Below are positions 1-24,342 of a stretch of 64,000 nucleotides of DNA, in pieces. The DNA lies in assembly GCF_024700885.2 (NCBI RefSeq), contig NZ_CP117016.1. One strand, given 5' to 3'. Position 1 is the stretch's first letter; every line of letters begins with the position of its first letter. The DNA is from Escherichia coli. GTDB taxonomy: Bacteria; Pseudomonadota; Gammaproteobacteria; Enterobacterales; Enterobacteriaceae. Made by a program: the position numbers and the translations under genes. Below the pieces are notes generated by a model. It was not told the DNA's origin. It saw only the letters and a list, made by a program, of their open reading frames with translations, and searched no databases.

Positions 1-593
1 CACGTACTGTAAAAATTTATAACCTGCTGGCCGGAACTAATGAGTTTATTGGTGAAGGTGACGCATATATTCCACCTCATACAGGGCTGCCAGCTAATTC
101 TACAGATATCGCCCCACCGGAAATTCCTGCTGGCTTTGTGGCAGTTTTTAACAGTGAAAATGAATCGTGGAATATTGTTGAAGACCATCGTGGTAAAACG
201 GTCTATGACGTGGCATCGGGGGACGCGTTGTTTATTTCTGAGCCCGGACCGCTACCAGAGAATGTCACCTGGTTGTCGCCAGCAGGGGAGTATCAGAAGT
301 GGGACGGCGTATCCTGGGTGAAGGATGAGGAAGCAGAAAAACTGTTTCGGATACGGGAAGCGGAAGAGAAAAAGGCAAGGTTGATCCAGGAAGCAACAGA
401 TAACATCGCAATTCTGCAGGATGCAGTTAATCTTGAAATAGCAACAAACGAGGAAAATTCACAACTGGATTCCTGGAGAAAATACAGAGTATTAGTGAGT
501 AGAATTGACACCAGTACAGCTCCGGATATCGTATGGCCAGAGCTGATGAATCAGGGTTATGTGCGGGAGGACGAGCAGATAACTTCAGACTGA
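1..593 (+). CDS. Phage tail fibre assembly protein (Tfa, P2 gpG-like), 5'-truncated by window edge
   Basis: Frame open from position 3 with no stop; translation ...[35 protein letters not shown]...[21 protein letters not shown] matches Tfa family as I recall it. Confidence 0.8.
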
Positions 594-1120
594 AATTTAG
601 TGATGAATGTTGAATCATCAGGAATATCATGCAATACCAATGCATGAGCACCTATTGTGACATTGTTTCCTATACGCACTTTGCCACCAAGAATGGTGGC
701 ATTACAACCAATGGTCACATTATGTCCTATAACAATATCCATATCATTAAAATCACCACGCAGCCCAATAGTTACCCCTGGTTTTATTGAACAATTTTCA
801 CCGATTGTTACTTTGTGACCGATAACAACACTGTTGAGATAAGAAATATCAAAGCCTTTCCCTATATTTACAGTTAAAGGGACTGTTACATTATATTTAT
901 CAAGAATGAAACGTTCTATTTTCCCCGCAATCTTCCGACAGTATCCGCCTTTATCAAAAAGGTACTTGGCTATGCGCCACCAAAATAAATAACGAACTCT
1001 TCTATGTTTTATTGCGCGAACAATTGCCTTTCGCCAGGAGAAAGGACGCTCGCTACCGATTACTTCATAGTGAATACAATCTTTAAGTTCATTAATATTC
1101 ATATCTCTATTATTCAGCAT
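557..1120 (-). CDS. Left-handed beta-helix (hexapeptide-repeat) O-acetyltransferase, WcaB/CysE-like; prophage cargo
   Basis: 187-aa ORF with tandem hexapeptide repeats ([43 protein letters not shown]); visibly AT-rich; 3' end overlaps tfa 3' end by 37 nt. Confidence 0.7.
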
Positions 1121-1290
1121 AAGATAATCATGTGACCAATTATTGTAATAATTTTAATGGTATGTTTCTACTGGCTATCCAGCGCGCCTGATGTCCAGTA
1201 ACAAATCGTTAACACTAGTGCAATCAAATGGTGAGTGTTAAGACTGGCCACTTATTACCAGGTATGAGGGTATGAGTGGCCAGCATTAAA

Positions 1291-1785
1291 TCAGAACAGC
1301 CCTTTAACTGAACTGGCCGCGCTGTTAAGGGATGATGTCACTTTATCTTTGAAGCCGGACAGCATATCGCTGAACGATGAGGATTGCAGGCGCTCCCGCA
1401 AATCCTCATCACAGCGTTCAAGGGTCAGTGAAAATTCTATCTTTTTCGCCTTACCGTAGCGATCAAACTCGGAACGGGTCGTATTCGTTTCGGTCAGGAC
1501 ATACATGCCGTAAATCTGCCCGACGCCATCAATCAGAGGCCAGGGGCGTCCTGTATACGCCTGCGTGGTCAGCAGCGACAGCGACACTTCGCCACCTGTA
1601 ATTTCAGGATAAAGCACACCAGAAAGAACGATGCGATCATCACCTGCACCGATATACTGCCAGCTTGCTGAACGGTTAACGCGTTCATTTTTCACATGCC
1701 GCCAGCTTTTGTTTTGCTGTAACTGCTGATGCGGCAGCGTGCGCAGCTCAAAAACAAACATGCCGTAGATCATCATCATGGCCAT
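1291..1785 (-). CDS. Phage tail protein gpU
   Basis: 164-aa ORF; FVFELRTLPHQQLQ...VLSGVLYPEITGG...WPLIDG resembles P2 gpU; precise start among the N-terminal Met codons uncertain. Confidence 0.8.
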   Translation of the reverse strand: MAMMMIYGMFVFELRTLPHQQLQQNKSWRHVKNERVNRSASWQYIGAGDDRIVLSGVLYPEITGGEVSLSLLTTQAYTGRPWPLIDGVGQIYGMYVLTETNTTRSEFDRYGKAKKIEFSLTLERCDEDLRERLQSSSFSDMLSGFKDKVTSSLNSAASSVKGLF

Positions 1786-1791
1786 GACTCC

Positions 1792-4635
1792 TCAATCTTT
1801 ATCGTAAAAACTGCCACGCCCGGCACGGGCGCGCCGTTCCATTTCTGCCCTGACCATTTCACCGACCAGTTTCGCCAGTTCGCGGGGATTCTGCGTAACA
1901 ACGTTATGCAGATGAACATGAATTTCACCACCAAATCCGGAGGCAACAGGCTCCCGGTTACGGAAAGTTACAGGAACTGATGCCACTGGAGATCGTATGG
2001 CCTCCGCCACCGGGCGGGAGCTGGCCGCAACAACAGGGACCAGCGCCGGAGGCAGCGGAGCCGGGACCACGGGTGTGATATTAATTGCGGGGGCAGGCTT
2101 ACTGACCTGCGCAATCTTCCGCTCCTGCCACTCCCCACGAACAGCAAGTGCGCGGGGCAGGTTCTTAAAGACAATATCGCCGGGGCCAATGCGTTTTTTC
2201 GTCTCATCAACCAGCTTACCTGTGTTATCAGCAATTTTGCTGAGTCTGCGTAGCGTCCCGGTATTGCTGTCTGTGAGCGGTTTGTTGTCTTTGGGTTTAT
2301 CACCTCCGGTGCCATTGCCATTTTCCACAGGCTTCGGCGGATTGATTTTCGCCAGGTCACCCTGAAGCAAGGCAACCTTGTCCTGAAGAATGGCCGCACG
2401 CTGTGCGTCTTCGATTTTCTTGCGCGCCCTTTCCGCTTCATCCGGAAGGACGCCAAGTTTTTCAAGTATCCACGCCAGCGTATCCAGTAGCATTTTTGCA
2501 GGTGTCAGAACAAGCTGTAACGCACCGCCAAGAACGTTACCGAATATCTCGCCAGCACTGGTACATTTATCCAGCGTTTCCTTGCTGGACTCCATCGGTG
2601 ACAGCAGCGATTTAAACCAGTTAAACACCTGGCTGATCCCGCTTCCGATTGCGTCAAAAACAGGACCAAACCGTTCAAAGGTTTCGCGCAACGGGGTCAG
2701 CCTTTCCATAATCCCGCTGAACACCCCGGCAAAAAATGCCCTGATGGGATCCCAGTATTTCCAGATAAGAACGGCAGCTCCGGCAAGCGCAGCCACGATA
2801 AGACCAACCGGACTGAACAGCGCCCCGATAGCGCCTCCCAGTAAAGAAACGGAACCCGTCACCATTCCCCACAGCGCAGGCAACACCCTGACGACATTCA
2901 TTGACCGGGTAAGAATGTCGAAACCAAGACGCAGGGTGGCCAGCTTCCCGTAAAGCACCCCAATAACCAGCGACAACGAGCCAATCGTTGCAGTCATTGC
3001 CAGCAACGCACCGCCTGCTATCAGTAGTTGGCGCGTCAGTACCGGATGGGCCTGCGCCAGCGAGGTGATTTTTTCAAGCACCCGCGTGAGCCACTGCGTG
3101 ACAGAACGCAGCGGACCGTCAACCAGATCACTGATGCGAATACGAAGACCTTCCCATGCGCTGTCGAGATTTTTCAGGTCCCCATCAAGATTATCGGCCA
3201 TTACTTTTGCGACGCGATCGGCCTCTCCCCTTGCCCCCTGCAATTCTCTGGTCAGTTTTTGCAGCTCTCCTGAACCAGCCGCCGCAACAAGCGTCTGCAA
3301 ACCAACGAACGCCTCTTCTCCGGCGATGTCCTTGAAGAAGGAAACCTGGTCCACCTGTCCGTATTTTTGTGTCGCCTTATAGAGATCAAGCAGCACATCC
3401 TCCATCGGGCGCATTTTGCCTCTGGCGTCAGCAACTGACACCCCCAGCTCTTTCAGTGCATCAGCCGCAGCTTTTGGCGGTGATGCAAGGCGGGACAGAC
3501 TTGCGCGCATGGCCGTACCAGCATCGCTTCCGCGAAGACCATTATTGGCAAGCATCCCGGCCATGGCCGCCGCTTCTTCAAGACTGATACCAAGTTTTGC
3601 GGCAACCGGACCGGTATACTTCATGGTTTCGCCCAGCGCGCGTAAATCAGTATTGGTCCGGGTGAATGTTGCTGTCAGTGTATCGCCAACCCGGTCCATT
3701 TGATCGGCTGTCAGGTTGAACTGTGTGAGGATATTGGAGCCTATATCAGCCGTCTCGCCGAGTTCGACGCCACCTGCCAGCGCCATATTAAGAACACCGG
3801 GCAATGCGGCCTGAATGGCCTGCGGAGTAAAACCAGCCATTGCCAGAAAGCTCTGCCCACTGGCGGCATCACTCGCAGTAAACTGTGTTTCAGAGCCAAG
3901 TTTTAACGCCTGCTCACGCAGCGCCTTAAACTGCGGGCTGTTTTTGTCGATTCGCGTCAGTGCCTGAACGCGGGACATCTCTTTGCCGAACCCGATCGCA
4001 GGCTGCAAAAAACGCCCGGCAGCATAGCCGCCCGCCGCTGCCGCACCAATTGCCAGCGCACCACCTGTTTTCAGTTTTCCCGCTGTTTCCTGCGCGCGCG
4101 AATACCGCTCACGCGCCCGCGTTACACGCGCAAGCGCCTGCCGTTCGCGTTCAAGCTGGTTGTTGTACTGTTCGGTGCGTCTGATGGCCTGCTGGATGGT
4201 GTTATCGCTGCCTGTCAGGGAAATGCCGTGGCGTTTCAGCTCTCCGCCAAGTTCCCGCATTTTCTGAATTTCCCGTGTGCGCGATTCATTCAGGCGTTCA
4301 AGCCGGGTGCTTAACTGCTGCATCAGCTTTTGTTGTTTTTCGCTGAGCACTGTACCCGTGCGTTGTAACTGATTAAGGGCGTTAAGCTGGCGTCGTGCTT
4401 TCACGATGCCCGCATCCGCTTTACTGACAGCGTCACGGGCGCGCTCAAATGAACGCGCCTGACGCTCGAGATTTTTGATCGCCCCCTGCGTTCGCTGGAT
4501 GGAGTCACCAAACTGCCCCATCAGGCGGCGGGCGTTTTCGGCAGGCCGGGTCAGCCTGTCAACGGCGCTGAAAGCGACCCGGATATCAAGAGTCTTCATT
4601 GTCTGCATTCCCGCTGCGAAGTGCCGCCCGCTCAC
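1792..4635 (-). CDS. Phage tail tape measure protein (gpT)
   Basis: 947-aa ORF between E/E' and U, Ala/Gly-rich with coiled-coil-like N-terminal region; start codon uncertain. Confidence 0.85.
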   Translation of the reverse strand: MSGRHFAAGMQTMKTLDIRVAFSAVDRLTRPAENARRLMGQFGDSIQRTQGAIKNLERQARSFERARDAVSKADAGIVKARRQLNALNQLQRTGTVLSEKQQKLMQQLSTRLERLNESRTREIQKMRELGGELKRHGISLTGSDNTIQQAIRRTEQYNNQLERERQALARVTRARERYSRAQETAGKLKTGGALAIGAAAAGGYAAGRFLQPAIGFGKEMSRVQALTRIDKNSPQFKALREQALKLGSETQFTASDAASGQSFLAMAGFTPQAIQAALPGVLNMALAGGVELGETADIGSNILTQFNLTADQMDRVGDTLTATFTRTNTDLRALGETMKYTGPVAAKLGISLEEAAAMAGMLANNGLRGSDAGTAMRASLSRLASPPKAAADALKELGVSVADARGKMRPMEDVLLDLYKATQKYGQVDQVSFFKDIAGEEAFVGLQTLVAAAGSGELQKLTRELQGARGEADRVAKVMADNLDGDLKNLDSAWEGLRIRISDLVDGPLRSVTQWLTRVLEKITSLAQAHPVLTRQLLIAGGALLAMTATIGSLSLVIGVLYGKLATLRLGFDILTRSMNVVRVLPALWGMVTGSVSLLGGAIGALFSPVGLIVAALAGAAVLIWKYWDPIRAFFAGVFSGIMERLTPLRETFERFGPVFDAIGSGISQVFNWFKSLLSPMESSKETLDKCTSAGEIFGNVLGGALQLVLTPAKMLLDTLAWILEKLGVLPDEAERARKKIEDAQRAAILQDKVALLQGDLAKINPPKPVENGNGTGGDKPKDNKPLTDSNTGTLRRLSKIADNTGKLVDETKKRIGPGDIVFKNLPRALAVRGEWQERKIAQVSKPAPAINITPVVPAPLPPALVPVVAASSRPVAEAIRSPVASVPVTFRNREPVASGFGGEIHVHLHNVVTQNPRELAKLVGEMVRAEMERRARAGRGSFYDKD

Positions 4636-4822
4636 GCCAGCTAACCACTTCGCCGGGCGTCATCATGAAGATTTCGGCGGGCGACCAGTTAAAAATGGCG
4701 GCGATATCTGCCACCAGATCTTCGATGTGCTCAAAGCACACCAGCGTGATTACGCTGCCGTCTCCTGCACGCTCTTCGCGCCAGAGTCTGGCTCGCTCAT
4801 AAAATTTACAGCCACAGCGCAC
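4586..4822 (-). other. E' extension frame, reached from gpE by programmed -1 frameshift; overlaps the start of gpT
   Basis: -1 frame ORF overlapping the 3' end of gpE; opens just 3' of a TAA, so no independent start is expected. Confidence 0.6.
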
Positions 4823-5124
4823 AACTGAATAAAATCGCGTGACGACATTTTTTTAATCATCACTTCATCCAGTCGTGGCGAGGTCACGCGAGGCAACAGC
4901 GTGAACATGGTATCCGCTTTCAGATTCAGCACATCAGACAGCGACAGACCACGCAGGGATCCAGCCTGTTCAATAGCCCCGGTGATCTCCACATACGTGA
5001 TTTTTTCGCCACCACGCTCAATTGGTCGGGTCAGTTTTACGCCACGTTCGACAGCCATATCCTCACCTGCCGTCACATCATCCACCACGGTGTTATTCCG
5101 GGTTTCAGTATCGATGTCTTTCAT
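4750..5124 (-). CDS. Tail assembly chaperone gpE (zero-frame product)
   Basis: ORF directly upstream of the tape measure gene with an overlapping -1 frame ORF, typical of E/E'; real start may be an internal Met. Confidence 0.7.
   Translation of the reverse strand: MKDIDTETRNNTVVDDVTAGEDMAVERGVKLTRPIERGGEKITYVEITGAIEQAGSLRGLSLSDVLNLKADTMFTLLPRVTSPRLDEVMIKKMSSRDFIQLCAVAVNFMSEPDSGAKSVQETAA
4801..4807 (-). promoter_or_regulatory. Candidate -1 slippery heptamer A_AAT_TTT for E/E' frameshifting
   Basis: Minus-strand GTA AAT TTT ATG in the E frame; a -1 slip gives AAA TTT TAT GAG, continuing into the E' ORF. Confidence 0.55.
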
Positions 5125-5179
5125 CAGTTTTCTCCTTTTCAGTCAGAGGCGACGCACTGCGTCGCCTGCATATTACTTA

Positions 5180-5692
5180 TCAGCCAAGCCCGAGCGCGGA
5201 ACGGATACGGTCAGGCAAAATGTCCTTGCCGTCCTTCCGGTAGATGTGGTTCAACAGGTCGATTTCCCACAGCGGGCGATCGTTAACGCTCAGCTTGTAG
5301 TAGGTGTTTTTGACAGCGTAAGTGTGTGATGTGGCTTCGCCCTGTTTGGCTTCCCCCATATCAATTTCCGTCACACGTCCGCGCATCTCGATTTCATACA
5401 GATCGCTTTCTGCATCGGTGTAGTATTCACCCGCAAAACGCAGCAGCGTGCCGTCAATCGTGCCGCCATATTTAAGGAACAGCGCACGAACAGCTCCCCC
5501 CATAACAAAACTCGCATCAAGCGCGGAGTCGTCCAGACCGAGATCAATACTTACCGCCCCCATCATGCCACCACCACGATAGCTGTCGGTTTTGCGCGTC
5601 AGTTTGGGCGGCGTGACGGATGTCACTTTACCCACTTCGTTTTCACCATCCACAAACAACGTAAAAAAGCGAAGATGTTTTGGTACAGCCAT
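5180..5692 (-). CDS. Phage tail tube protein (gpFII)
   Basis: 170-aa ORF; its start overlaps the FI stop (ATGA), the usual FI-FII coupling. Confidence 0.85.
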   Translation of the reverse strand: MAVPKHLRFFTLFVDGENEVGKVTSVTPPKLTRKTDSYRGGGMMGAVSIDLGLDDSALDASFVMGGAVRALFLKYGGTIDGTLLRFAGEYYTDAESDLYEIEMRGRVTEIDMGEAKQGEATSHTYAVKNTYYKLSVNDRPLWEIDLLNHIYRKDGKDILPDRIRSALGLG

Positions 5693-6876
5693 CAGGCACC
5701 TCCCAGCACCGCAAATGCGGGACCAAAGAATTCATCAGTAAACGTCTGGTAAAGCTCCATGTCTTCCAGTGGCGGAACGGGCGTATATTTGTAGCGAATA
5801 CGCACACGTCCCTGACGTAAATTCGTGGTGCCGTTATCCACCACGTCATACCAGCACTCCGCGCCAATCAGTTTCCCGGCAGTAACCAGCGAATCCAGTT
5901 TTGCCCTGATGGCACTGATAACATCCTTCACGTTCGCAGGCGTCAGTGGACTGTCGATAGTTTCAAACTGCGCTTCCGCAATTGAATCAGCCAGCACCTG
6001 TGCGGTTCGGGTATACACCTCAAAGATGTAGGCGTTCGTTTCCGGTGTGCGGTTGCCCCAGAAGCGGAACCCATTGCGACGAATAATGGTCGTGATTTCT
6101 TTGTTGTTGAGGCTGTTGGCATCGCTGTCTTCGGCCTGCAACGACCAGAACACATGCCTCGACATCCCCAGCACATTTTTAACCGGAACGTTGGACAGTG
6201 ATTTGTGCCACCCCTGCTCATGGTCAATGTACGCACGAAGGCCGCACGCATAGGCAGGCGCGGGGAACGTTTCGTTTTTGCCACTTTTCGGGTTGTAGGC
6301 GATGAAGTCCGGCCATAAGAGCATCACCTCACGTTCGTTGAATTTCTGGCGGTAGGTAATCGCCTCAGCCATCGTGTTACAGCCGTGACATGAGGCATAC
6401 ACAAACGCGCGCAGTTTACCTGCAATCACGCACAGGGATTTTGTTACAGCCTCCGTGTCCAGCTCCGGCGCGGCCAGAATACGCGGACGGTATCCGATGC
6501 TTTCATCCTGCTCTGCAACAAGCAGCGCATACATCCCCGTATAGCTGCCGTCATCCTCAGAACCACCGATAACCAGTTGATCCTGCGTCTTTCCGTCTTC
6601 TTCTTTGTGTTCAGCCACGCGAACGACAATCACCTTTGTGCTCACCTGGTCTGCGATGGCCTTAAGCGCACGATAAAGCGTCCCCGTTGTCCCGCATTTT
6701 CCCAGCACGTCATTGACGCGGGTCAGCAGTGTGGGCTTGTTCAGCGGGAACAGCTTCGCGTCCGCATCATCCGCCGTTGCCACGATACCGATAACGCTGG
6801 AATCAACATCGTTAATCGCTGTTACCAGGTCGGTATTTTCCGTAACACGGGCACCATGAAAACGAGTTTCACTCAT
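5692..6876 (-). CDS. Phage contractile tail sheath protein (gpFI)
   Basis: 394-aa ORF; motifs LRAFVYASCHGC, QGWHKSLSNV, IRRNGFRFWGNRT, YKYTPVPPLE match P2 FI as I recall it. Confidence 0.9.
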   Translation of the reverse strand: MSETRFHGARVTENTDLVTAINDVDSSVIGIVATADDADAKLFPLNKPTLLTRVNDVLGKCGTTGTLYRALKAIADQVSTKVIVVRVAEHKEEDGKTQDQLVIGGSEDDGSYTGMYALLVAEQDESIGYRPRILAAPELDTEAVTKSLCVIAGKLRAFVYASCHGCNTMAEAITYRQKFNEREVMLLWPDFIAYNPKSGKNETFPAPAYACGLRAYIDHEQGWHKSLSNVPVKNVLGMSRHVFWSLQAEDSDANSLNNKEITTIIRRNGFRFWGNRTPETNAYIFEVYTRTAQVLADSIAEAQFETIDSPLTPANVKDVISAIRAKLDSLVTAGKLIGAECWYDVVDNGTTNLRQGRVRIRYKYTPVPPLEDMELYQTFTDEFFGPAFAVLGGA

Positions 6877-7033
6877 AGCTTCAGCCCCTTGTATCCGTTA
6901 AATGATTCGGCAACAATCATCACCCACCACGCGCGTAATCTCACCCCTGCGCCGTTCTCCCACCACGGCGACAACAAAAAGCAGTAACCCCCTCCGCACG
7001 CACATGCGACCATGCCGCACAGGGAGGGAACAG

Positions 7034-8131
7034 ATGACCGACACCACCATGCAATTGCTCAGTCAGGGCACAGACCCCGTGAAAATGCCGGATTTTGATA
7101 TTCTCGCGGAGGGTAAAACGCTGTCAGGCGTGACAGAGCGCCTGATGAGCCTGTCACTGACCGACAACCGGGGATTTGAGGCGGACCAGCTCACCATCAC
7201 GCTGGATGATGCAGATGGTCAGTTGCAGCTACCGCCACGGGGCGCGCGCCTGACGGTTCTCATTGGCTGGAAAGGAGAACCGCTGACAGAAAAAGGCACT
7301 TACATTGTTGATGAAATCGCTCACGAAGGACCGCCGGACAGGCTGACTGTTTCAGCCAGAAGCGCAGATTTTCGGGATGAATTTAACGTTAAACGTGAGG
7401 TGTCCTGGCATGATGTGACCGTTGAGCGTGTGGTATCCGCCATCGCTCATCGGTACGGTCTGAAACCGCAAATCAGCGAAATGCTGATGGATATCGAAAT
7501 CGACCACGCCGACCAGACCGAAGAAAGCGACATGTCCTTTCTTACGCGCATGGCGGAAATGCTGGGCGCAATCACCACGGTAAAAAGCGGTAATCTGTTA
7601 TTCATTATGCCAGGCGGTGGCGTGAACGCACAGGGCCAGCCGTTGCCATCGTTCGCCATCACGCGCAGCAGTGGCGATCGCCATCAGTTCCGCATTGCTG
7701 ACCGCGAAGCGTATACGGGGGTACGCGCTTACTGGCTTGATCTTAATTACGGGAAAAAGAAAAAAGTCAGCGTGAAACGCCGTAAACCGAAAATGGAGAA
7801 AAGCAGTAGCCGTGAAGGCGACTATATGGAAGGTGCGGAAGGCAACGTGTTTGTGTTACGCAAGACTTATCAGAACGAACAGGCAGCAAGACGCGCTGCG
7901 GCGGCAAAGTGGCAGCAGCTACAACGCGGAGCCGCATCATTCTCCATCACACTGGCACGTGGACGCGCAGAACTCTACCCCGAAATGCATGGCACGGTAA
8001 CAGGATTTAAAAGCGAGATTGATAATCAGGACTGGATTATTGCAAAAGCCGAGCACACCATTGATAACAGCGGTTATACCACGCAGCTTGAACTTGAAAC
8101 AAAAATCCCTGAATGGATTGCGCAGACCTAA
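7034..8131 (+). CDS. Phage late control / tail protein gpD
   Basis: LSLTDNRGFEADQL, SARSADFR, SWHDVT, YMEGAEGNVF match P2 gpD; ATG at 7034 is preceded by AGGGAGGGAA; the ORF track extends upstream to 6902. Confidence 0.85.
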   Translation: MTDTTMQLLSQGTDPVKMPDFDILAEGKTLSGVTERLMSLSLTDNRGFEADQLTITLDDADGQLQLPPRGARLTVLIGWKGEPLTEKGTYIVDEIAHEGPPDRLTVSARSADFRDEFNVKREVSWHDVTVERVVSAIAHRYGLKPQISEMLMDIEIDHADQTEESDMSFLTRMAEMLGAITTVKSGNLLFIMPGGGVNAQGQPLPSFAITRSSGDRHQFRIADREAYTGVRAYWLDLNYGKKKKVSVKRRKPKMEKSSSREGDYMEGAEGNVFVLRKTYQNEQAARRAAAAKWQQLQRGAASFSITLARGRAELYPEMHGTVTGFKSEIDNQDWIIAKAEHTIDNSGYTTQLELETKIPEWIAQT

Positions 8132-8146
8132 ATGGTGGGAAGATAC

Positions 8147-8185
8147 GGCACAGAGCCAACATAATATACCTGTTTGCTCTGTGCC
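8147..8185. repeat. Perfect 10-bp inverted repeat (GGCACAGAGC / GCTCTGTGCC) with 19-nt loop between convergent D and orphan gene
   Basis: Read directly; no adjacent T-run on either side. Confidence 0.5.
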
Positions 8186-8261
8186 CGAAATAGGCATCAT
8201 AAACCTAACGATGAATTGATATGCAAGATTATAAAAAATCCGCTGACATTATTTCTCATCG

Positions 8262-22799: not shown

Positions 22800-22904
22800 A
22801 TGGTTTTTGGGCAATAATCAGTCTGTGGTGTGCGTTAGCTCGTGTTTTTACACCGCATTCTTGCGCTAACCTTATGATCTGGCAGACAACATGGGAGAGA
22901 CATC

Positions 22905-23765
22905 ATGTGGCAGGCAATCAGTCGTCTTTTGAGCGAGCAGTTAGGTGAAGGCGAAATCGAACTGCGTAATGAACTGCCTGGCGGAGAAGTCCATGCCGCA
23001 TGGCAGTTGCGCTATGCAGGACGTGACTTTTTCGTCAAATGTGATGAAAGGGAACTGCTTCCCGGTTTTACCGCCGAAGCCGACCAACTGGAGTTACTGT
23101 CGCGTAGTAAAACCGTCACCGTGCCTAAGGTTTGGGCAGTTGGCGCTGACCGTGACTATAGTTTTCTGGTGATGGATTATCTCCCACCTCGCCCGCTGGA
23201 TGCGCATAGCGCATTTATTCTTGGTCAGCAAATTGCGCGTTTACATCAATGGAGCGACCAACCGCAATTTGGCCTCGATTTCGATAACGCGCTCTCCACA
23301 ACTCCCCAGCCCAACACCTGGCAACGTCGCTGGTCAACTTTTTTTGCTGAACAACGGATTGGCTGGCAGCTGGAACTGGCGGCAGAAAAAGGGATCGCTT
23401 TCGGCAATATCGATGCCATCGTCGAGCATATTCAGCAGCGTCTGGCCTCGCATCAACCGCAGCCTTCTCTGTTGCACGGCGATTTATGGTCCGGCAACTG
23501 TGCGCTGGGTCCGGATGGCCCGTACATTTTCGACCCGGCCTGCTACTGGGGTGACCGAGAGTGCGACCTGGCGATGTTACCGCTGCATACTGAACAGCCG
23601 CCACAAATCTATGACGGCTATCAGTCAGTATCCCCGCTACCTGCCGATTTCCTTGAACGTCAACCGGTTTACCAACTCTACACGCTGTTAAATCGTGCAA
23701 GGTTATTTGGCGGTCAGCATTTGGTTATTGCTCAGCAGTCACTGGATAGATTATTAGCAGCATAA
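22905..23765 (+). CDS. yniA: Fructosamine/ketosamine kinase family protein YniA
   Basis: 286-aa ORF in conserved position. Confidence 0.9.
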   Translation: MWQAISRLLSEQLGEGEIELRNELPGGEVHAAWQLRYAGRDFFVKCDERELLPGFTAEADQLELLSRSKTVTVPKVWAVGADRDYSFLVMDYLPPRPLDAHSAFILGQQIARLHQWSDQPQFGLDFDNALSTTPQPNTWQRRWSTFFAEQRIGWQLELAAEKGIAFGNIDAIVEHIQQRLASHQPQPSLLHGDLWSGNCALGPDGPYIFDPACYWGDRECDLAMLPLHTEQPPQIYDGYQSVSPLPADFLERQPVYQLYTLLNRARLFGGQHLVIAQQSLDRLLAA

Positions 23766-23805
23766 TATGGGGTGAGGATAATGGCCGCTCCGTGCGGCCT
23801 TTTGA

Positions 23806-24342
23806 TTAAATAAACCCCAGCAGAGAAAAGAACACATAACCTGCAGCAATACAAATAACCGGCAGGATATACAGCGAGAAAAACTGCAGGAAAATAGTAT
23901 GGTGCGGCACAACAATACGTGACTCAATTTGTTCACGCGTTAGCCCCTCTTCCCCTTTGGCTTTTTCCAGAATGAGTTGATCTTCAACACCTTCCCGCAA
24001 GAAGCGCGCCTGGCGACTCATCCGGGCACCGGAATCCTGCAACGCCAGCCCGACAAAAATCAGGATGAAAATCACCCAGAACATAACGTTCACGCCACCA
24101 TTAAAATTGGGCGTCGGGGAGTTATACCAGAACAGATTCAAAAAAGGCGTATTCGCCTGCATCATATCGATCATGACATGAGTAAAGTCGAGCATGACCG
24201 CATTAATGCCTTCCTGGTTTTCCTGCCGGGTATTCATAAATTTCAGCAAAGAAATCAATGTAGAGATCAATGCAGGTATAAAAATCACCCAACCCAAAAT
24301 CCTTTTCAAAACAGCAATGCGTCCAGCTTGTTGATACGTCAT
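23806..24342 (-). CDS. yniB: Inner membrane protein YniB
   Basis: 178-aa ORF with hydrophobic segments. Confidence 0.85.
   Translation of the reverse strand: MTYQQAGRIAVLKRILGWVIFIPALISTLISLLKFMNTRQENQEGINAVMLDFTHVMIDMMQANTPFLNLFWYNSPTPNFNGGVNVMFWVIFILIFVGLALQDSGARMSRQARFLREGVEDQLILEKAKGEEGLTREQIESRIVVPHHTIFLQFFSLYILPVICIAAGYVFFSLLGFI

Follow-up and report, generated by a model that had tools for sequence, protein, structure and literature searches.

In phage P2, the late genes FI, FII, E, E', T, U, D and ogr follow each other on one strand, and FI to D form a single F operon, an order given correctly in the original prediction and confirmed by the P2 reference record. In the Escherichia coli DNA analysed here (the window, 64,000 nucleotides of contig NZ_CP117016.1, assembly GCF_024700885.2), the genes U, T, E/E', FII and FI are instead found on the minus strand (1291-6876), flanked by tfa and D on the plus strand. 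This raises the question of whether the block was inverted within this prophage, leaving it defective, whether it was flipped by the assembly or by a recombinase, or whether it simply represents the native order of a P2 relative. The data described below indicate, with a probability of about 0.9, that the window carries the right end of an intact P88-like prophage in which FI-U natively opposes D and ogr, the two directions being presumably served by back-to-back late promoters.

Gene Layout at the Right End of the Prophage

Gene names were assigned from the list of open reading frames and by blastp against the P2 and P88 proteins. U, T, E, FII, FI, D and ogr were each found to be the reciprocal match of the same-named P2 protein (E-values from 1e-13 to 1e-119), and neither the reading frames nor the blastp alignments revealed internal stops in the tail genes, D or ogr. 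The window opens with the 3' part of tfa (1-593, plus strand), a lambda-tfa-like tail fibre assembly gene that begins some 24 nt ahead of the window, shares 84.5% nucleotide identity with lambda orf-194 and is labelled "tail fiber assembly protein" by PGAP in an identical genome. Between tfa and U lies a cargo gene for a hexapeptide-repeat O-acetyltransferase (557-1120, minus strand). The tail block itself reads leftward from FI (tail sheath, 5692-6876) through FII (tail tube, 5180-5692), E (tail assembly chaperone, 4750-5124), its -1-frame extension E' (4586 to about 4807) and T (tape measure protein, 1792-4599) to U (tail protein, phrog_76, 1291-1785), with FI, FII, E and T identified by blastp against both P88 and P2. 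FI is separated by a divergent spacer of 157 bp (6877-7033), the predicted bidirectional late-promoter region, from a full-length D (7034-8131, plus strand), which encodes the baseplate hub or late control D protein (phrog_52, E = 3e-165). Further right are a 386-aa low-GC cargo ORF (8262-9422, minus strand), the zinc-finger late activator gene ogr (9624-9884, plus strand; 86 aa, C-X2-C-X24-C-X4-C) and attR, a 25-bp repeat (10479-10503) whose partner attL, adjoining btuC, is 34.36 kb upstream. The boundaries of the tail block fall within 1121-1290 and 6877-7033, where they had originally been placed. The two minus-strand cargo genes had been passed over on that occasion; in relatives without cargo, ogr directly follows D.

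E and E' appear to be joined by a P2-type programmed -1 frameshift, as suggested by a slippery heptamer, A_AAT_TTT, in phase at E codon 106 (4807-4801) and by an open -1 frame. The latter yields a 71-aa extension ending in ...FNWSPAEIFMMTPGEVVSWRERAALRSGN, which was aligned by eye with its homologue, P2 E' (...FHWPPSELYPMSLTELITWREKALRRSGN). The functional phage φSM carries the same heptamer, whereas T_TTT_TTG is found in P88, SEN5, KSP20 and P2.

Comparison with the P2 F Operon

The window and the P2 F operon (pF-FI-FII-E-E'-T-U-D, then ogr) have in common the set of tail genes and their internal order, the E/E' -1 frameshift and an activator of the Ogr zinc-finger type. Upstream of FI, P2 has a TGT-N12-ACA-type late-promoter dyad, and a dyad of that type is predicted in the window as well. 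The position of D, however, differs. In P2, U (22312-22791) and D (22791-23954) lie on the same strand, with the stop codon of U overlapping the start of D, whereas in the window 5.2 kb separate them and their strands differ. D is consequently not the co-directional gene directly 3' of U that defines the P2-type single F operon, but lies outside the FI operon and diverges from FI across the 157 bp. The geometry that had been described, with FI-U inverted relative to P2, FI and D divergent and D apart from the F operon, was accordingly correct. The proteins themselves are only 33-49% identical to those of P2 in blastp (U 46%, T 33%, E 35%, FII 42%, FI 45% and D 49%), which argues against the block being a rearranged P2.

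The Same Order in Functional Phages

Much closer counterparts are found in phage P88, to which the tail proteins are 76-99% identical by blastp (U 99.4%, T 94.8% over 935 aa, E 75.6%, FII 96.5%, FI 98.7% and D 98.6% over 365 aa). Positions 1286-10290 are collinear, at 91-96% nucleotide identity, with P88, φSM, 500465-2, P884B11, PhiR44_2 and Chuche. The maps of P88 and φSM show tfa, U-T-E'-E-FII-FI (on the opposite strand), D and ogr oriented as in the window, and the FI-D spacer of both is nearly identical to the one described here. P88 is a mitomycin-inducible, plaque-forming phage whose genome was sequenced from the phage itself (PMC5285337), and the Citrobacter phage φSM forms plaques and lysogenises its host (PMC6456863). 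Both are inducible or spontaneously released.

The arrangement extends well beyond these two phages. FI and D are adjacent and divergent in all 47 phage records with a sheath protein (FI) at least 55% identical to that of the window, while FI…U-D is co-directional in eleven more distant phages of the comparison set, P2 among them; two records at about 50% identity, Yersinia phage vB_YenM_42.18 and Erwinia phage ENT90, were left out of this orientation count. Representatives inspected with the order of the window belong to five ICTV genera (Xuanwuvirus, Novemvirus, Reipivirus, Reginaelenavirus and Senquatrovirus), to which Serratia phage KSP20 can be added. Among complete E. coli genomes, about a quarter present the arrangement: 1,379 carry the FI-D junction, which is collinear in 1,356, the remainder being truncated inside D and not at the junction. 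Over the first 10.5 kb of the window, identity reaches 99.9% or more in seven independent complete genomes.

The prophage as a whole, examined in a genome identical to the window over its first 10.5 kb, measures 34,386 bp (34.4 kb), is integrated between btuC and ihfA, and has a full P2-type gene set and att direct repeats at both ends (24 of 25 positions identical). When compared with P88 (NC_026014) by blastn, 74% of it aligned at 95.0% identity, collinear and on one strand throughout, giving an overall similarity of about 70.3%. Membership of the genus Xuanwuvirus is set by ICTV at about 70% or more whole-genome nucleotide similarity to the type phage P88, so that this value stands right at the genus threshold and clearly below species level; U-T-E'-E-FII-FI opposite to D, the gene order of the genus, is also present. 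The prophage is, on these sequence grounds, P88-like and assigned to Xuanwuvirus, family Peduoviridae. It differs from P88 in its integrase/immunity region and att site (btuC-ihfA), in the replacement of the invertase and invertible fibre segment by the lambda-like tfa and the acetyltransferase gene, and in the presence, between D and ogr, of the 386-aa cargo gene, which P88 does not have.

Native Order Versus Rearrangement, Artefact or Invertible Segment

The FI-FII-E/E'-T-U inversion is thus the normal, conserved order of working P2-related phages, namely P88 and its relatives, as the last-listed alternative of the original prediction had proposed. No evidence against a native architecture was found. 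An in-place inversion within the present prophage, producing a rearranged and probably defective element, had been the favoured interpretation, because the block is inverted with respect to P2 and the F promoter is separated from D. Only the geometry of that proposal survives. Intact, plaque-forming P88 and φSM have exactly the order of the window, as have all 47 related phage records, and since intact relatives natively carry it, the defective-prophage reading is refuted. A recent inversion is also hard to reconcile with a junction collinear in 1,356 E. coli genomes, with proteins so distant from those of P2, with the integrity of all genes and with a prophage that is complete between its att repeats. 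The suggested search of the breakpoints for short inverted repeats disclosed none linking 1121-1290 with 6877-7033. Taken together, these observations make a recent inversion extremely improbable. The inversion of the P2-type F operon, minus D, is instead ancestral: it is old, fixed across the clade and compatible with a fully functional phage.

An assembly artefact flipping the 5.7-kb segment, which had also been contemplated, has nothing in its favour beyond the difference from P2, and it is the least credible explanation of all. The same junction is shared by the seven independent complete genomes, by over a thousand further genomes and by independently sequenced phages, and the region has no repeats able to mislead an assembler. 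Hardly any weight can be given either to the possibility that a site-specific recombinase, for instance the P88 invertase, actively inverts FI-U as a phase-variable segment. In P88 and φSM, a DNA invertase gene does lie directly beside U. However, the window prophage lacks an invertase (no invertase ORF occurs in the first 12 kb of the window), no inverted repeat joins the U boundary to the FI-D spacer in either the window or P88, and the long inverted repeats of P88 are all confined to its tail-fibre segment. Across the 1,356 genomes and every phage record, a single orientation was seen. The features of Gin/Cin/Hin-type systems, that is, crossover repeats at both ends, an invertase and the occurrence of both orientations, are hence absent from the FI-U block.

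A Predicted Bidirectional Late Promoter Between FI and D

If the order is native, D would be expressed apart from the FI operon. P2 Ogr-dependent late promoters have the consensus TGT-N12-ACA, a dyad centred at about -55 from the transcription start, and their activator carries the Ogr motif (PMC3931495). The P2 record shows that the divergent promoters pP and pO share one activator site lying 55.5 bp from both mapped starts. This geometry was used, with no tuning, to derive the -10 positions in the window. The FI-D spacer contains a single predicted Ogr-binding dyad, TCTCCCACCACGGCGACA (TCT-N12-ACA; 6956-6973), followed by ACAAAAA. On its left, a predicted -10 hexamer, GATGAT (6916-6921, minus strand), would direct leftward transcription of FI from about 6909; on its right, GACCAT (7008-7013, plus strand) would direct transcription of D from about 7020, with the Shine-Dalgarno sequence GGGAGGGA (7022-7029, plus strand) between this predicted start and D. 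The dyad sits 55.5 bp from the predicted start on both sides. The FI-D spacer would thereby resemble P|O of P2 in having divergent late operons about 150-170 bp apart and a single dyad about 55.5 bp each way (mapped in P2, predicted here); P2 has this architecture only at P|O, and a second copy is predicted in the window.

Relatives preserve the same elements. The distance between the FI and D start codons is 151-157 bp in nine relatives, and the window shares with eight relatives one T[G/C]T-N12-ACA dyad flanked on both sides by -10-like hexamers, one hexamer being 1 nt off. The FI-side hexamer retains A2 and T6, and at the D-side position the relatives show AACCAT, AATCAT, GATCCT or GACGAT. 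At the homologous position, the dyad of KSP20, SEN5 and 3LV2017 is a perfect TGT-N12-ACA. Owing to shared ancestry, this agreement denotes conservation and not independent replication. Within the prophage, TCT-N12-ACAACAAAA occurs elsewhere only in the P|O spacer, and no site in 44.5 kb other than the dyad is flanked at ±55.5 bp by -10-like hexamers in both directions, a configuration that none of 200 shuffles produced. The distances of the dyad fit the predicted -10 elements and it matches five of the six specified bases of TGT-N12-ACA. A strict search of the prophage for that consensus gave no match in the FI-D spacer, and the motif was loosened to T[G/C]T-N12-ACA after the relatives had been viewed. 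The initial -10 criterion, nAnnAT, missed the mapped promoters of P2 itself, which read nAnnnT, making the hexamer test looser than it first appeared and the hexamers supportive evidence only. The window also encodes a cognate activator of the Ogr C4 zinc-finger family, 41.5% identical to P2 Ogr over 53 aa (NF007241, E = 1.7e-11, below the curated cut-off). With this limited identity and a zinc-finger loop of 24 instead of 22 residues, its preference for P2-like sites is presumptive.

In the proposed model, the leftward FI-to-U operon and the rightward D would be transcribed from two back-to-back late promoters within the 157-bp spacer, both using the one dyad, whose centre lies about 55 bp from either start, as pP and pO do in P2. 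When the ancestral pF-FI...U segment inverted, its near-palindromic activator site would have landed about 70 bp upstream of D and may have been co-opted to drive D (D-ogr in cargo-free relatives) in the other direction. The existence of such a second bidirectional Ogr-dependent late promoter, with an activator site co-opted after the inversion, is judged somewhat better than an even bet; Ogr binding, the start sites and the action of the dyad on D are all inferred from sequence. The asymmetry of the dyad was also considered as a mark of the old pF site having been carried along with FI, but the site is too near palindromic to tell. The P88 and φSM papers and a wider literature search contained no description of a bidirectional FI|D promoter.

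It is also conceivable, if rather unlikely, that the order is native and D is driven otherwise, either from a promoter of its own, be it constitutive or controlled by another factor, or with the dyad serving FI only. The departure of the dyad from TGT-N12-ACA, the D-side leader of only about 14 nt, and start sites that are predicted under a permissive hexamer criterion would all be compatible with this. Nevertheless, a generic sigma-70 scan detected no promoter in the spacer, as expected if its promoters are activator-dependent. In nine phages, moreover, the spacing between the dyad and the D-side hexamer is exactly the same despite the poor conservation of the surrounding spacer, and pP/pO of P2 provides the precedent of one site serving two divergent promoters.

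The shared activator site, if real, would explain how the splitting of an essential tail operon became fixed in five or more phage genera. The clade offers a natural example of a tolerated operon-splitting inversion, and this tolerance is probably due to symmetric P2-type late activator sites being able to serve two divergent promoters, a small point on how regulatory architecture constrains the rearrangement of phage genomes. In practical terms, gene order alone gives no ground for scoring such a prophage as defective, and heuristics or readers that take P2 as the template of intactness will mis-flag a family carried by about one in four complete E. coli genomes.

The U Boundary and Its Cargo Gene

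Just past the stop codon of U, an inverted repeat (1238-1289, minus strand) is predicted to fold into an RNA hairpin of -26.7 kcal/mol (z = -2.9), which possibly terminates the leftward tail operon. A hairpin in the corresponding position of P88 includes a T-run; that of the window, albeit stable, has no U-run and is for this reason not confidently called a terminator. Generic sigma-70 promoter and terminator scans gave nothing useful at either boundary of the block. The neighbouring acetyltransferase gene occupies the slot that in P88 and φSM is held by the DNA invertase and the invertible tail-fibre segment. Its product matches phrog_2154 (E = 4e-79) and EpsC/CysE/WcaB-like NCBIfam models, all of the latter under their curated cut-offs, and the module formed by tfa and the acetyltransferase gene is 97% identical in phage vB_EcoM-613R2.

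Tail Gene Order in the Prophage and Its Relatives

Tail genes were assigned from a six-frame ORF list and blastp searches against the proteins of P2, the reference phage with a single F operon, and of Escherichia phage P88. A lambda-tfa-like gene (84.5% nucleotide identity) enters from the left end of the window and ends at 593 on the plus strand. It is followed on the minus strand by a hexapeptide-repeat O-acetyltransferase gene (557-1120; EpsC/CysE/WcaB-like, under family cut-offs; phrog_2154), U (1291-1785), T (1792-4599), E' (4586 to about 4807, a -1-frame extension of E), E (4750-5124), FII (5180-5692) and FI (5692-6876). D (7034-8131) and ogr (9624-9884) lie on the plus strand, with a minus-strand ORF of 386 aa and 32% GC between them (8262-9422), and a hok/gef gene follows ogr at about 10075-10215. 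The gene map of the original prediction is upheld, with the addition of the acetyltransferase gene between tfa and U and the 386-aa ORF between D and ogr, and the P2 order that it gave is also right: FI, FII, E, E', T, U, D and ogr are co-stranded in the annotated P2 record. FI to D are annotated there as a single F operon, which the window element does not have, its FI-U block being inverted relative to P2.

This inversion had been taken to suggest a rearranged and probably defective prophage. In an already known group of phages, however, FI-U natively runs opposite to D. In a megablast search of window 1-10500 against sequenced phages, positions 1286-10290 were collinear with P88, P884B11, 500465-2, PhiR44_2, Chuche and the Citrobacter phage φSM (OR565851) at 91-96% identity, and in the annotated maps of these phages tail fibre, tfa and D point rightward and U-T-E'-E-FII-FI leftward. 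P88, the type species of Xuanwuvirus, was induced with mitomycin C, formed plaques and had its genome sequenced from the phage (PMC5285337), while φSM is released spontaneously, forms plaques and lysogenised E. coli K-12 (PMC6456863); neither paper comments on tail-gene orientation. The arrangement is therefore already known, since working phages with published and annotated genomes have it, and by genome similarity and gene order the element is a P88-like phage.

The order is also widespread. When FI and D were used as tblastn queries against 50,697 phage records, all 47 records with an FI at least 55% identical had FI and D adjacent and divergent, the matched coding regions lying about 160-220 bp apart (hosts: Escherichia, Citrobacter, Enterobacter, Klebsiella, Serratia and Salmonella). 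With FI at most 51% identical, the two genes were co-directional and about 4.5-5 kb apart in eleven phages found in both tblastn lists or inspected as maps (P2, Cartapus, 500465-1, Kp4850-2, Kp4885-2, RSA1, phiE202, phiE094, Mana, BR319a and P24A7b). The records inspected place the divergent order in five ICTV genera (Xuanwuvirus, Novemvirus, Reipivirus, Reginaelenavirus and Senquatrovirus) and in Serratia phage KSP20, which has no assigned genus. A probe across the FI-D junction (window 6480-7430) matched 1,379 of 5,426 complete E. coli genomes, and was collinear over at least 80% of its length in 1,356 of these; the partial matches listed end inside D and not at the spacer.

Three other origins of the divergent order can be weighed against this background. 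A rearranged P2 would account for the inverted block, but is ruled out because the window proteins are 95-99% identical to those of P88 (E, 76%) and only 33-49% identical to those of P2 (blastp). Misassembly peculiar to the window, raised in the original prediction, is excluded by seven independent complete genomes that match its first 10.5 kb at 99.9% identity or more. An invertible segment might be suspected from P88, in which a DNA invertase adjoins U; yet the long inverted repeats of P88 all lie in the tail-fibre invertible segment, and none pairs the FI-D spacer with the boundary next to U. The window likewise has no inverted repeat joining its two boundaries (1121-1290 and 6877-7033) and no invertase ORF in its first 12 kb, and a single FI-D orientation is found throughout the 1,356 collinear E. 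coli genomes and the related phage records, which rules out this explanation as well. From the lack of linking repeats, the single orientation and the seven matching genomes it follows that the inversion took place long ago and was already fixed in the ancestor shared by the clade.

A Predicted Bidirectional Late Promoter

The inversion does sever D from the F promoter, as originally pointed out. A precedent for divergent late transcription exists in P2, whose record annotates one binding site of the activator Ogr for pP and pO, two divergent promoters; in the P2 sequence, the centre of this dyad (TGT-N12-CCA) is 55.5 bp away from each of the two mapped starts. A published account gives the consensus as TGT-N12-ACA, names the four late operons of P2 and sets out the zinc-finger motif of Ogr; in phage Smp131, too, it assigns one 18-bp site to both divergent promoters (PMC3931495).

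Within the 157-bp FI-D spacer of the window there is just one T[G/C]T-N12-ACA element, TCTCCCACCACGGCGACA (6956-6973), one base away from the consensus. Unadjusted transfer of the pP/pO geometry places predicted -10 hexamers at 7008-7013 towards D (GACCAT) and at 6916-6921 towards FI (GATGAT), with predicted starts near 7020 and 6909 and leaders of 14 and 33 nt, respectively. An initial hexamer rule, nAnnAT, missed the promoters of P2 itself, which read nAnnnT. Under this rule no other site in the 44.5-kb locus is flanked by such hexamers in both directions, and 0 of 200 shuffles produced one. The composite TCT-N12-ACAACAAAA occurs elsewhere only in the spacer between the prophage's own P and O genes, and ACAACAAAA is found three times against 0.29 expected, two of these in the FI-D and P-O spacers. 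The same layout is present in P88, φSM, phiT5282H, ST16-OXA48phi5.4, Kp4848-1, 3LV2017 (the sole case with a one-base offset, in its FI-side hexamer), KSP20 and SEN5, relatives that are mutually non-independent. In KSP20, SEN5 and 3LV2017 the TGT-N12-ACA is perfect, and its extended half-site, GGTTGT, is shared with P2 pF. Conserved columns of a dyad-anchored ungapped alignment are the dyad with ACAAcaA, A2 and T6 of each hexamer, and a GC-rich stretch that precedes the D-side hexamer on its upstream side; other spacer sequence aligns poorly. A generic sigma-70 scan of the spacer returned no promoter, as expected of activator-dependent promoters. The window Ogr has the motif C-X2-C-X24-C-X4-C and shares no more than 41% identity with that of P2.

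From this sequence pattern, the odds are a little better than even that D and FI are served by promoters sharing the dyad. The spacer would then be a second bidirectional late promoter driving D without the F promoter, a possible reason why an inversion that splits an essential operon could be tolerated. This prediction is the sole, and modestly, new point of the analysis.

Completeness of the Prophage

A RefSeq genome (locus L003) in which the window's first 10.5 kb recur without change shows the whole element, located between btuC and ihfA. It encodes an integrase, C-like repressor, replication endonuclease, portal, terminase, scaffold, capsid and lysis genes, baseplate, fibre and tail genes, ogr and hok. 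A 25-bp direct repeat, AAAGAAAAAAGGCCG[C/G]AGAGCGGCC, bounds the element, its copies 34.36 kb apart (window 10479-10503; L003 8739-8763), and overlaps a hairpin directly downstream of ihfA. Alignment with P88 gives eight blocks on one strand and in one order, with 74% coverage at 95% identity (about 70% overall). The integrase/immunity module differs from that of P88. With this gene set, flanking repeat and collinearity, and no internal stops in the tail genes (blastp against P2 and P88), the prophage looks complete, contrary to the probably defective element first proposed.

The E/E' frameshift signal is an in-phase A_AAT_TTT (4801-4807, minus strand), the same as in functional φSM, and the -1 extension has clear homology to P2 E'. 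P88 has both A_AAT_TTT and T_TTT_TTG, while P2, SEN5 and KSP20 use T_TTT_TTG, a small shift of the site within the family.

In the identical genome, PGAP calls a short, 262-aa D ("VgrG/Pvc8 family") from window 7343 (L003 39964-40752), beside a spurious antisense pseudogene (L003 39911-40003), an annotation pattern that recurs in many E. coli genomes. It is regarded as an artefact of annotation because the reading frame has no stop from 7034 onwards and aligns with all 365 aa of P88 D end to end.

Variable Cargo and Database Records

The tfa-U and D-ogr slots both hold variable cargo in this phage family. In the former (557-1290) the acetyltransferase gene stands where P88 and φSM have a DNA invertase and an invertible alternative tail-fibre segment; phage vB_EcoM-613R2, which looks unrelated, carries the tfa-acetyltransferase module at 97% identity. 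Going by feature names, the D-ogr slot (8132-9623) has no cargo in P88 and a TagO-like gene in φSM, while other E. coli prophages have hxsB/hxsC radical-SAM genes, DUF2971 or an MFS transporter in it; P2 has no cargo there. The 386-aa protein had no match in NCBIfam, PADLOC, PHROGs or Pfam, and its confident model (pLDDT 89.7) had no informative neighbours among solved structures. Its family is widespread and wholly uncharacterised, with members in Proteobacteria and Firmicutes, and one homologue adjoins traN in an Edwardsiella conjugative element.

From electron micrographs φSM was described as a siphovirus whose tail is long and non-contractile (PMC6456863), but its genome (OR565851) carries P2-type sheath, tube and baseplate genes. 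Its GenBank record labels the sheath gene "late control gene D protein" and D "ogr", which look like labelling errors.
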